IMG/VR virus record: IMGVR_UViG_2872180393_000001
Length of the DNA: 51,038 bases
From: a virus
Taxonomy: Duplodnaviria > Heunggongvirae > Uroviricota > Caudoviricetes
Reading direction: 5' to 3' (one strand)
Below, piece by piece: positions 6,001 to 9,000 of this stretch (its first letter is position 1; each line of letters starts with the position of its first letter). The position numbers were made by a program.

Positions 6001-9000
6001 AAGTTGTTTCTTTGATTTATCTCCCGCTTTACGCCAGTAACGAGCCTCAGCAATGTGATATTCTCTTTTTAATCGACTTAACTCTGGAGTTTTCGCCAGC
6101 TCTACCGGAATCATTTTGACCTCCATTTTTTATAGGCTTCGACGGCTTCACGAAACATCTTTTCATCGCCAATAAAAGTGGCGATAGTGAATTTAGTCTG
6201 GATAGCCATAAGTGTTTTATCCATTTTTGGGAACTCCTGGCTGATTAAGTACGTCGATGAGTCGTTTCCATCCGTCACGTAATTTACGGGTGATTCGTTC
6301 AAGTAAAGATTCGGAAGGGCAGCCAGCTGAGGTAGCCTGAGTTTAACGGACACTCCTTCCTGAAATAGAATGGCATCAGAAGGAGCTAATAATGAGCAGA
6401 AAAACCCAACGTTACTCTAAAGAGTTCAAAGCCGAAGCTGTCAGAACGGTTCTTGAAAATCAACTTTCGATCAGTGAAGGCGCTTCCCGATTATCCCTTC
6501 CTGAAGGCACTTTAGGACAATGGGTTACCGCCGCCAGAAAAGGGCTCGGTACTCCTGGTTCCCGCACGGTGGCTGAACTGGAATCTGAAATTCTGCAACT
6601 GCGTAAGGCGTTAAATGAAGCTCGCCTTGAGCGAGATATATTAAAAAAAGCAACAGCGTATTTTGCACAGGAGTCGCTGAAAAATACGCGTTAATCGAAC
6701 AATGGCGACAACAATTTCCCATTGAAGCGATGTGTCAGGTATTTGGTGTATCCAGGAGCGGTTATTACAACCGGGTACAGCATGAACCCTCAGACAGAAA
6801 ACAAAGTGATGAGCGGCTAAAACTGGAGATTAAGGTGGCACATATCCGCACTCGCGAAACATATGGAACCCGGCGGCTCCAGACGGAGCTGGCAGAGAAT
6901 GGCATCATCGTTGGTCGTGACCGACTGGCACGTCTTCGTAAGGAGCTAAGGCTACGCTGTAAGCAGAAACGCAAGTTCAGAGCGACTACGAACCCGAACC
7001 ACAATCTGCCAGTTGCGCCAAATCTGCTGAACCAGACGTTCGCTCCTACAGCACCAAATCAGGTCTGGGTGGCGGACCTGACGTATGTTGCCACACAGGA
7101 GGGATGGTTGTACCTAGCTGGCATCAAAGATGTTTATACGTGCGAAATTGTCGGCTACGCCATGGGAGAGCGCATGACAAAAGAGCTGACAGGTAAAGCC
7201 CTGTTTATGGCGCTCAGGAGCCAGCGCCCACCTGCCGGGCTAATCCACCACTCTGATCGAGGTTCACAGTACTGCGCATACGATTACCGGGTCATACAGG
7301 AGCAGTTTGGTCTGAAAACATCAATGTCGCGTAAAGGTAACTGTTACGACAACGCTCCGATGGAAAGCTTCTGGGGAACGCTGAAAAATGAGAGCCTGAG
7401 CCACTATCGTTTTAATAACCGGGATGAAGCCATCTCAGTAATACGGGAATACATTGAGATTTTCTACAATCGTCAGCGTCGTCACTCTCGTCTGGGGAAT
7501 ATCTCCCCGGCAGCCTTCAGGGAAAAATATCATCATATGGCTGCTTAAAAAAAGAACAAATGGTAGTGTCCGCTATTGCCAGTACACCTCAAGCAACAGG
7601 CCACCCTGCAATGGCATATTGCATGGTGTGCTCCTTATTTACGCTTTAAATTGCTCCGTGTATTCACTCGTTGGAATGAATACACAGTGCAGTGTTTATT
7701 CTGTTGTTTATGCCAAAAATAAAGACCAACTATGCGGCCTCGGAAGGAAGTCCAATCATCTTATTCAAATCTTCTACCCGTAAAGCAGGAAGTGCTGTAC
7801 TTGCTTTATCTGCTTCTTTTGGTAGCAATTCTTTGCTTTCAGGCCAAACTTCAATAAGTCGCTTAACTGTTGTGACTGAGTTCAAAGCAGCCCATACATT
7901 TGATTCGATATCCTTTTTCCTGGCTTTAAGTTTTTGTTGCAATGCGCAGATTTCATCAAACCTTTTTGTTATTTCGTGTTCAGCGCTAAACATGCATTTA
8001 TCTCTGGTCGGAGTAGGGAGCAATATATCTTCGCCGTTGCCGTCTTTCCCATATGAATACCATCCAACCCTTCTGCCAGATACAGTCAGATAAATTGAAG
8101 TAGAACGAACATCGCATGAGTAAAATGAACATCCCATCTTTTCAAGTTCTTCACTTATAGCTACCAACTTGGATGATAACTGATCCACTTCCTCAGTTTT
8201 CTTCTTCCCGCCAAACGCAACAACTCTGGCGTCAAGTGCAAGCTGGTTCTTTAGCTTTGTTACTTCTTCAAGTTCAGTGAACACCCCGGACTTAATTAAA
8301 GCGTTGCGTGCTATTACTTCTTTTATTCTCGTTGTTAAGCGGATTGATGACATATTAATTCCTCTCAAATAAGTGGTTTGCTGCCTGATTTCATTTTCTG
8401 GCGACCAACACAAGTCATCTTGCTGTCAGCTGTTTGGATTTCCTGTAGCCTGCCGCGTAAAGAGCTACGTTTGGAAGACATACACCAGTTTCTGGTTGCT
8501 TATGTCCAAACTCATTCGCGTACACAATGGCCGCTCGCTCCAGATTGCGTCTGTATTCTTTCTGTTGCCAGATCACGTCCTGTGCCATGAACTTAATTGG
8601 CTTAGCGTCTTCTATGCGCTCAGGCGTTTCGTGAGTACCTTTAGCCTGAATCTGTGCTCTGCTTAGAGTAGGGCGGTGTAATACTTCTGAACTTATTGCT
8701 TCTTCGCGGGCCAGCACGCCGTTAGCTAATGCCTTTGCCTTTAAACGCTCACGACGACGAGAACGTGAATTGCCTTTGAACTGAGTTCTGCGTGTCATAT
8801 AGACCTCCTGATGAACTTTGGTGGTGTGGTAGGTGGGAGACCCATTTTGACCTGTTTCGGCCTACTTCAATTCGGCAATAGTCCCGCAGGCCTCGCCGCT
8901 TTACGTGCGACATATTCCCGTCCATGAACCCTTCACCACACCCCAAAGTTCACTTTGGTTATTGCGCTTTGTCAGCGCCGTAGATTCATATTCGAATCGT

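Follow-up and report, generated by a model that had tools for sequence, protein, structure and literature searches.

What becomes of the left early operon of a lambdoid prophage when an insertion sequence (IS) lands in it: is the interrupted gene lost, and are the genes behind it cut off from their promoter? The question is raised by a 51,038-nucleotide stretch of viral DNA (IMG/VR record IMGVR_UViG_2872180393_000001, Caudoviricetes; the whole stretch is called the window below), in which a sequence-only reading had noticed an IS600-like element inside a gene resembling cIII of phage lambda. The explanation we favour, with a probability of roughly 85%, is a simple insertion of IS600 (IS3 family) into cIII of a lambdoid prophage residing in an IS600-rich enterobacterial chromosome, with duplication of the triplet AGC (Ala11 of cIII). 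The insertion would be one step in the neutral, IS-driven decay of the resident prophage, and its polarity on the downstream genes would be largely suppressed.

IS600 within the cIII gene

The interrupted locus comprises the following features.

6328..7591, plus strand: IS600 copy 1, complete element, 1264 bp (TG..CA termini; identity to other copies)
6328..6353, plus strand: left inverted repeat of IS600 copy 1, TGAGGTAGCCTGAGTTTAACGGACAC, aligning imperfectly with the right end once this is reverse-complemented
7566..7591, plus strand: right inverted repeat of IS600 copy 1, GTGTCCGCTATTGCCAGTACACCTCA, whose reverse complement starts with TGA
6325..6327, no strand: AGC target-site duplication, left copy (GCT on the minus strand, cIII codon Ala11)
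7592..7594, no strand: AGC target-site duplication, right copy
6392..7548, plus strand: IS600 transposase, orfA 6392-6694 (100 aa) and orfB 6730-7548 (272 aa, -1 frame)
6643..6650, plus strand: A7G slippery site, programmed -1 frameshift
7592..7624, minus strand: cIII 5′ fragment, codons 1-11 (MQYAIAGWPVA), then TGA at 7591-7589 inside the IS
6217..6324, minus strand: cIII 3′ fragment, codons 12-46 plus TAA, holding the essential region 14-37

Copy 1 begins with TGAGGTAGCC and ends with ACACCTCA. Its inverted repeats are imperfect and about 26 bp long (TGAGGT...ACCTCA), the best blocks between the left repeat and the reverse-complemented right end being TGAGGT and CGGACAC, and its TG...CA ends are typical of the IS3 family. 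OrfA matched Pfam HTH_Tnp_1, and OrfB matched HTH_21, rve, rve_2 and rve_3. A conceptual -1 shift at the A7G site, where frameshifting is predicted, gave a 385-aa OrfAB without stops, which scored 411 bits against the NCBIfam IS3 equivalog NF033516 (cut-off 160) and was identical at 382/385 residues to the copy in Escherichia coli 98E11 (WP_085948186.1). The DNA of copy 1 was 99.2-99.7% identical to IS600 copies in E. coli VL40, E. coli 98E11 and phage Stx2_PV06-102. The name follows the RefSeq/PGAP label ‘IS3-like element IS600 family transposase’, with homologous copies carrying the note ‘programmed frameshift’; by an isoform criterion of about 95% or more identity to copies so labelled, the sequence at 6328-7591 identifies the element as IS600 itself (IS3 family), apparently transposition-competent. 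The coordinates given for an ‘IS600-like’ element by the sequence-only reading were exact, and the 3-bp duplication that it described as intact is present as AGC on both sides.

When the IS and one AGC were removed in silico, the flanks joined into a minus-strand open reading frame (ORF) that begins ATG CAA TAT GCC and encodes MQYAIAGWPVAGCPSESLLERITRKLRDGWKRLIDVLNQPGVPKNG*. Its product matched Pfam Lambda_CIII (PF02061) end to end, over positions 1-42/42, with 104.4 bits (cut-off 25.7; E 3e-30), and also matched phrog_550. The rebuilt gene agreed with lambda cIII (NC_001416) at 158/165 nt and had the same AAGGAG...ATG initiation context. Residues 1-46 are those of lambda except for I36V, which is also the only change within residues 14-37. 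The earlier claim that excision would reconstitute cIII was thereby borne out, and its description of the result as an uninterrupted lambda-like ORF held for the reading frame and failed for the length, which is 46 codons rather than the 54 of lambda. Codon 47, TCA in lambda, is TAA here, and the last eight lambda residues (SNTYGYPD) are missing. This stop codon (6217-6219) differs from the lambda codon by a single C-to-A change, which simultaneously produces Q3K in the overlapping Kil.

An empty version of the site exists in other genomes. Across 800 bp, the rebuilt empty site matched E. coli VL40 at 799/800 bases without a gap, the sole mismatch lying 387 bp from the junction; in VL40, cIII and kil are annotated as intact and AGC is present once. 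The empty site of E. coli RMDEC465 is 99% identical. In BLAST comparisons, the window flanks mapped to positions 3481-6400 and 6398-7223 of the VL40 locus and thus overlapped by exactly three bases, AGC, a pattern that on these alignments marks a simple insertion in textbook fashion. In VL40, the closest relative with an empty site, the prophage is itself an IS-ridden remnant: IS600 and IS2 truncate antirepressor and replication genes (1-1141 and 11318-12800), and both the N allele and the immunity genes (rexA-like, ExbB-like) are different.

The filled site, in contrast to the empty one, appears confined to one genome. The junction, searched as an exact 30-mer or as 400 bp across the left junction, was absent from 5,426 complete E. 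coli genomes and was likewise not found in GTDB species representatives, IMG/VR or JGI metagenomes. An exact look-up of the IS-truncated tail protein L of the same prophage led to one chromosome only, closed and 4.86 Mb in size (CP026846.1; GCA_002949495.1). Its IS600 load, together with a Kil allele that Enterobacteriaceae entries share, would fit a background resembling Shigella or enteroinvasive E. coli. Among deposited phages, only Stx2_PV06-102 spanned the whole 2.1-kb query, with its IS600 in the Sak4 gene and not in cIII. Judged by these searches, cIII::IS600 is a private event: the insertion site alone is new, its components and the type of event being well known. Matches to the empty-site 30-mer, which is lambda-identical, among GTDB genomes were mostly on low-coverage contigs, several of about 48.4-48.5 kb, from unrelated taxa (Shewanella, Pseudomonas, Enterococcus, Bradyrhizobium and Kitasatospora). 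This is the pattern expected of contamination with lambda control DNA, and such matches are uninformative on host range.

The 46-codon form of cIII is found far beyond the window. The exact 46-aa CIII protein occurs on at least 1000 contigs of the protein collection, and the same gene, nucleotide-identical and uninterrupted, is present in VL40 and RMDEC465, where its product is annotated as ‘protease FtsH-inhibitory lysogeny factor CIII’ (WP_001198866.1). At least 120 IMG/VR viral contigs carry the uninterrupted target 30-mer; among 120 such contigs, the 46-aa form accounts for about 24, with four sequence variants, and the 54-aa form for about 91. Going by these occurrences, the 46-codon cIII is a widespread natural allele whose stop predates the IS, and it was this common allele that IS600 entered. 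Residues 14-37 of CIII have been reported to be essential and sufficient (PMC1838920); because these residues are retained, the 46-aa CIII keeps the essential region. A search of NCBIfam returned no model matching the 46-aa CIII or the 37-aa Kil.

In its present state, the window contains no uninterrupted translatable cIII ORF. What the insertion duplicated is codon 11 (GCT, Ala); the IS follows this codon, and the in-frame TGA that comes next is the reverse complement of the terminal TCA of the IS. The 5′ fragment has a Shine-Dalgarno sequence and ATG context identical to those of lambda. Since only an 11-residue peptide can be made and the 14-37 segment lacks a start codon, cIII is a null allele, a cIII::IS600 pseudogene. 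Re-initiation as a rescue of the distal part was considered and ruled out: in the sequence reading and ORF list, a TAA interrupts the distal frame 15 nt within the IS end, and between it and codon 12 none of the start codons ATG, GTG and TTG occurs.

Three sister copies and the state of the prophage

Three further IS600 copies in the window are 100% identical to copy 1 over the same 1264 bp, each with its own target-site duplication.

23759-25022, plus strand: IS600 sister copy, target-site duplication GGA
39183-40446, minus strand: IS600 sister copy, target-site duplication CAG
48954-50217, minus strand: IS600 sister copy, target-site duplication CCC

Because each of these identical 1264-bp copies is flanked by a 3-bp repeat of its own, the boundaries of copy 1 are independently confirmed. 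Matching 3-bp flanks were found at 4/4 copies, for which the chance probability is about (1/64)^4. The sister copies split the genes for the small terminase subunit (phrog_57, phrog_1790), the tail protein L (PF05100) and a tail fibre (phrog_2636), and excision of each IS600 in silico gives back a known ORF. With all three of these genes interrupted, the prophage is defective in assembly and cannot make particles, whatever the state of cIII. The sequence-only reading gave no weight to the prophage being already defective through these three insertions.

The identity of all four copies points to recent IS600 activity within this genome. All four target duplications are intact, and therefore no recombination between copies has yet rearranged the prophage. 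Expansion of IS600 and IS-driven gene loss have been documented in Shigella and enteroinvasive E. coli (EIEC) (PMC7373316), and gene inactivation by IS600 is known from lacZ in O121:H19, an E. coli that produces Shiga toxin (STEC) (PMC9397093), and from many genes in Shigella (PMC7373316). Because CIII has a role only while an infecting phage is establishing lysogeny, its loss would cost the host nothing. The step would also be reversible: with both AGC copies still in place, precise excision would bring cIII back, and the IS-excision enhancer (IEE) could drive such excision, as IEE-mediated excision of IS600 restores the interrupted lacZ of O121:H19 (PMC9397093).

The leftward operon and the question of polarity

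The genes and sites around the interrupted cIII are listed here from the repressor towards the end of the recombination module.

10705-11409, minus strand: CI-like repressor (phrog_4)
9047..9075, minus strand: pL-like promoter (TTGACC-17-TATCTT) among operator-like repeats
8964..8979, minus strand: nutL boxB-like hairpin, GCGCUGACAAAGCGC, with a 5-bp stem on folding (8964-8983 as paired with its pR-side twin)
8415..8798, minus strand: antiterminator N, 127 aa, intact (Pfam N_peptide, phrog_271)
7730..8353, minus strand: Nmad5-family gene between N and cIII (Pfam PF18757, E 4e-71)
7722..7741, minus strand: terminator-like hairpin after Nmad5, upstream of cIII (consensus scan only)
6111..6224, minus strand: kil, 37 aa, intact, its start overlapping the cIII 3′ end (Pfam Lambda_Kil)
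5926..6126, minus strand: small recombination-module ORF (phrog_1723), a hypothetical protein in VL40
5237..5917, minus strand: Sak4-like single-stranded DNA-annealing ATPase (predicted), intact (phrog_2872, E 3.9e-108; Pfam AAA_24)
4653..5240, minus strand: SSB-like partner (DUF669 in VL40; phrog_743, E 5.6e-66)
4333..4629, minus strand: Abc2 anti-RecBCD protein (Pfam PF11043, E 7e-59)

The minus-strand order is thus pL-like site, nutL boxB, N, Nmad5, cIII and kil, with cIII downstream of N and overlapping the start of kil. The exact N protein occurs on at least 1000 contigs. The nutL boxB-like hairpin has a twin on the pR side (nutR), CGCUGACAAAGCG at 11782-11800 (plus strand), to which it matches over 19 nt; we take this pair to be P22-type boxB, and the arginine-rich N-terminus of N, GNSRSRRRERLKAKALA, presumably marks it as resembling P22 N.

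Downstream of the IS, kil and the Sak4 module are intact, as the sequence-only reading had stated for the former. Kil matched Pfam Lambda_Kil (PF06301) over positions 1-31/31 with 75.7 bits (cut-off 27.6), is identical over its 37 aa to the annotated VL40 Kil (WP_000361830.1) and occurs as the exact protein on 58 contigs. Its Shine-Dalgarno sequence, AGGAG, lies 9 nt upstream of its ATG, and because it has this site of its own, kil should be independent of translational coupling to cIII. The recombination module had been described as Sak4-type and as separated from pL by the insertion. It indeed has a RecA-fold, Sak4-family ATPase and, next to it, an SSB-like gene, the annealing activity being predicted; the Sak4-like protein has the Walker A motif GESGTGKS and occurs as the exact protein on at least 1000 contigs. 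The module now lies 1267 bp further from pL.

Whether that distance matters depends on polarity, and here the earlier statement that the insertion ‘probably introduces polarity’ is probably overstated. Scans of the minus strand for terminators in the antisense IS RNA returned only weak hairpins without a proper T tract (6881-6864, 6635-6621 and 7204-7189), and no 78-nt window of this RNA was rut-like, i.e. C-rich and G-poor (C ≥ 0.28 and G ≤ 0.18); both scans are heuristic and do not settle polarity. Adhya, Gottesman and de Crombrugghe are said to have found in 1974 that N-modified polymerase releases the polarity of IS insertions. Polymerase at cIII would already carry N, loaded at nutL, and would resist both Rho and hairpin terminators: because the terminator-like hairpin at 7722..7741 precedes cIII, transcripts extending as far as the IS are expected to be N-modified by then, provided that this hairpin acts like lambda tL. 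N-modified polymerase should then largely read through the IS, leaving polarity partial at most, and kil, Sak4, the SSB-like gene and abc2 would still be transcribed from pL after induction.

An IS600-borne promoter was also considered as a driver of kil. A search for outward promoters at both IS ends gave no minus-strand hit facing kil, the only hit being the inward promoter of the IS at 6343-6371 (plus strand), and this candidate was ruled out.

Several further features of the operon were seen along the way. The kil frame is open upstream through the cIII remnant into the left end of the IS, forming an 80-codon ORF from GTG 6353 (6111-6353, minus strand); this GTG lies just after a GGAAGGA stretch, so that translation of Kil with an N-terminal extension is conceivable. 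A 91-aa cIII-Kil fusion ORF is present on one IMG/VR contig, and the phrog_2461 profile (89 positions) aligns with cIII at positions 2-39 and with Kil at 43-78. Between N and cIII, the Nmad5-family ‘nucleotide modification associated’ gene occupies the position of lambda ea10/ral, and related Stx2a phages and O121 genomes have an extra DUF2528 gene, about 515 bp, in this interval. At 9285-10667 (minus strand), where lambda has rexAB, several moron-like ORFs separate the CI-like repressor from pL; among them are ORFs of 113 aa and 177 aa, with a strong terminator-like hairpin (9581-9604) behind them.

Several points weigh against the favoured explanation of a simple, neutral insertion with suppressed polarity. 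Translation of cIII stops early and is followed by about 1.26 kb of untranslated RNA, the classic setting for Rho polarity; the degree of polarity is one that we infer from the sequence; no boxA was identified next to the boxB-like hairpin; the CIII function of the 46-aa allele (FtsH inhibition and CII stabilization) is a prediction; and independent IS600 insertions in cIII of 98E11 and in the Sak4 gene of a Stx2a phage leave room for a non-neutral reading. Strong polarity, which would effectively cut kil and the Sak4/SSB/Abc2 module off from pL and silence them, builds on the first of these points: behind the TGA of the IS, the longest open frames in the transposase-antisense RNA are 62-97 codons from stop to stop, untranslated RNA exposes Rho loading sites (PMC12360218), and the weak hairpins listed above lie inside the IS. 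Upstream, however, N, the nutL boxB hairpin with its nutR twin and the pL-like promoter are all intact, and the antisense RNA has neither a rut-like window nor a hairpin with a proper T tract. N-modified polymerase reportedly overrides the polarity of IS insertions, and kil keeps its own AGGAG. On balance, we regard silencing of the downstream genes as unlikely. A different doubt concerns cIII itself, which might have been a pseudogene truncated by the TAA at codon 47 before IS600 arrived, so that the insertion destroyed nothing functional. The rebuilt ORF does lack SNTYGYPD, and most relatives (about 91/120 viral contigs) encode 54 aa. However, the exact 46-aa protein is found on at least 1000 contigs and bears the name CIII in RefSeq, its four variants among viral contigs speak for persistence, the segment 14-37 (reported as essential and sufficient; PMC1838920) is kept, the Pfam model, just 42 positions long, is matched over its entire length, and the codon-47 substitution is at the same time Q3K in the kil frame. 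Prior loss of cIII therefore strikes us as quite improbable.

Selection, or a preference of the element, could in principle replace neutrality: IS600 might favour the cIII region as a target and in one orientation, or insertions might be selected because they disarm toxic CIII and Kil. Such a reading can point to two other events, an independent IS600 after codon 2 of an HK022-like cIII in E. coli 98E11 (target-site duplication AAT) and an IS600 in the Sak4 gene of phage Stx2_PV06-102 (target-site duplication CAT), to a transposase that reads against pL in all three insertions, and to the report that persisting CIII is deleterious to the host (PMC1838920). But these are three events only among the thousands of genomes with the locus (2,234 genomes); their positions differ, the triplets AGC, AAT and CAT are unrelated, there is no shared flanking motif, and the same orientation in 3/3 cases has p = 0.25. 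Furthermore, IS600 has struck three structural genes of the same prophage, as would random insertion into dispensable DNA, and pL is repressed in the lysogen, so that selection against cIII or kil should be weak. We give this reading very little credence, and still a shade less to its fullest form, in which IS600 insertions into the cIII-kil-recombinase region would be recurrent, orientation-biased and selected. Were that form true, it would describe a route by which Shigella, EIEC and STEC O121 disarm toxic early-left prophage genes, or switch them reversibly through IEE excision; three same-orientation events fall short of evidence for either a hot spot or selection. An assembly artefact, finally, would mean that a repeat was misplaced and that the real genome lacks an IS here. 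Short reads place four 100% identical 1.26-kb repeats in 51 kb only with difficulty, but every copy is bordered by a perfect 3-bp duplication of its own and a known ORF returns on each excision, which collapsed or misjoined repeats do not produce, and the source is a closed 4.86-Mb chromosome; we consider an artefact extremely improbable.

Comparison with known insertions and with lambda

Collectively, these results describe ordinary IS-driven prophage decay without a new biological feature. In annotation, the locus should stand as cIII::IS600, a pseudogene, followed by an intact kil and an intact Sak4 module, and the prophage should count as a defective remnant inactivated by four IS600 insertions. 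Beyond annotation, it has little significance, apart from showing IS-driven prophage decay in an IS600-rich genome in clean, textbook form.

The element itself is like the IS600 of Shigella, EIEC and STEC O121:H19 in its 1264 bp, its TG..CA ends, the A7G -1 frameshift, the rve (DDE) domain and the 3-bp duplications; there is no structural difference, and the insertion site alone is new. The event in the 98E11 prophage (NZ_AP027181.1; 2471-3864 of the locus) shares with that in the window the same IS, the same gene family, the same orientation to pL and an intact 3-bp duplication, but its HK022-like allele, its position in the gene and its duplication (AAT) differ, and it is an independent event. 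98E11 also has another IS600, about 500 bp downstream of kil. In Stx2_PV06-102, a Stx2a phage of O121 type (LC616036.1), the IS600 at 1501-2764 lies in the Sak4-like gene, at a site that corresponds to about position 5668 of the window, and has the same orientation to the early-left operon.

As in lambda, cIII and kil follow N and precede the recombination genes in the pL operon, with identical Shine-Dalgarno and start context and with the start of kil overlapping the cIII 3′ end. In contrast, CIII has 46 rather than 54 codons and Kil 37 rather than 47 aa, with a different C-terminus, and cIII is split by the IS after codon 11. The neighbours also differ: Nmad5 replaces ea10/ral, and Sak4/SSB/Abc2 replace gam/bet/exo.

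The classical polar IS insertions that N-modified polymerase reads (gal::IS read from lambda pL, credited to Adhya et al. 1974, and lambda r14 and r32) likewise placed an IS downstream of nut and N in a lambdoid early operon. Those cases were measured experimentally, whereas suppression of polarity in the window is deduced from the arrangement of its sites. N and boxB are presumably P22-like here, unlike the lambda-like ones of the classical cases. The locus is also a ready natural construct on which to ask to what extent the polarity of an IS3-family element is suppressed by a P22-type N/nut system.

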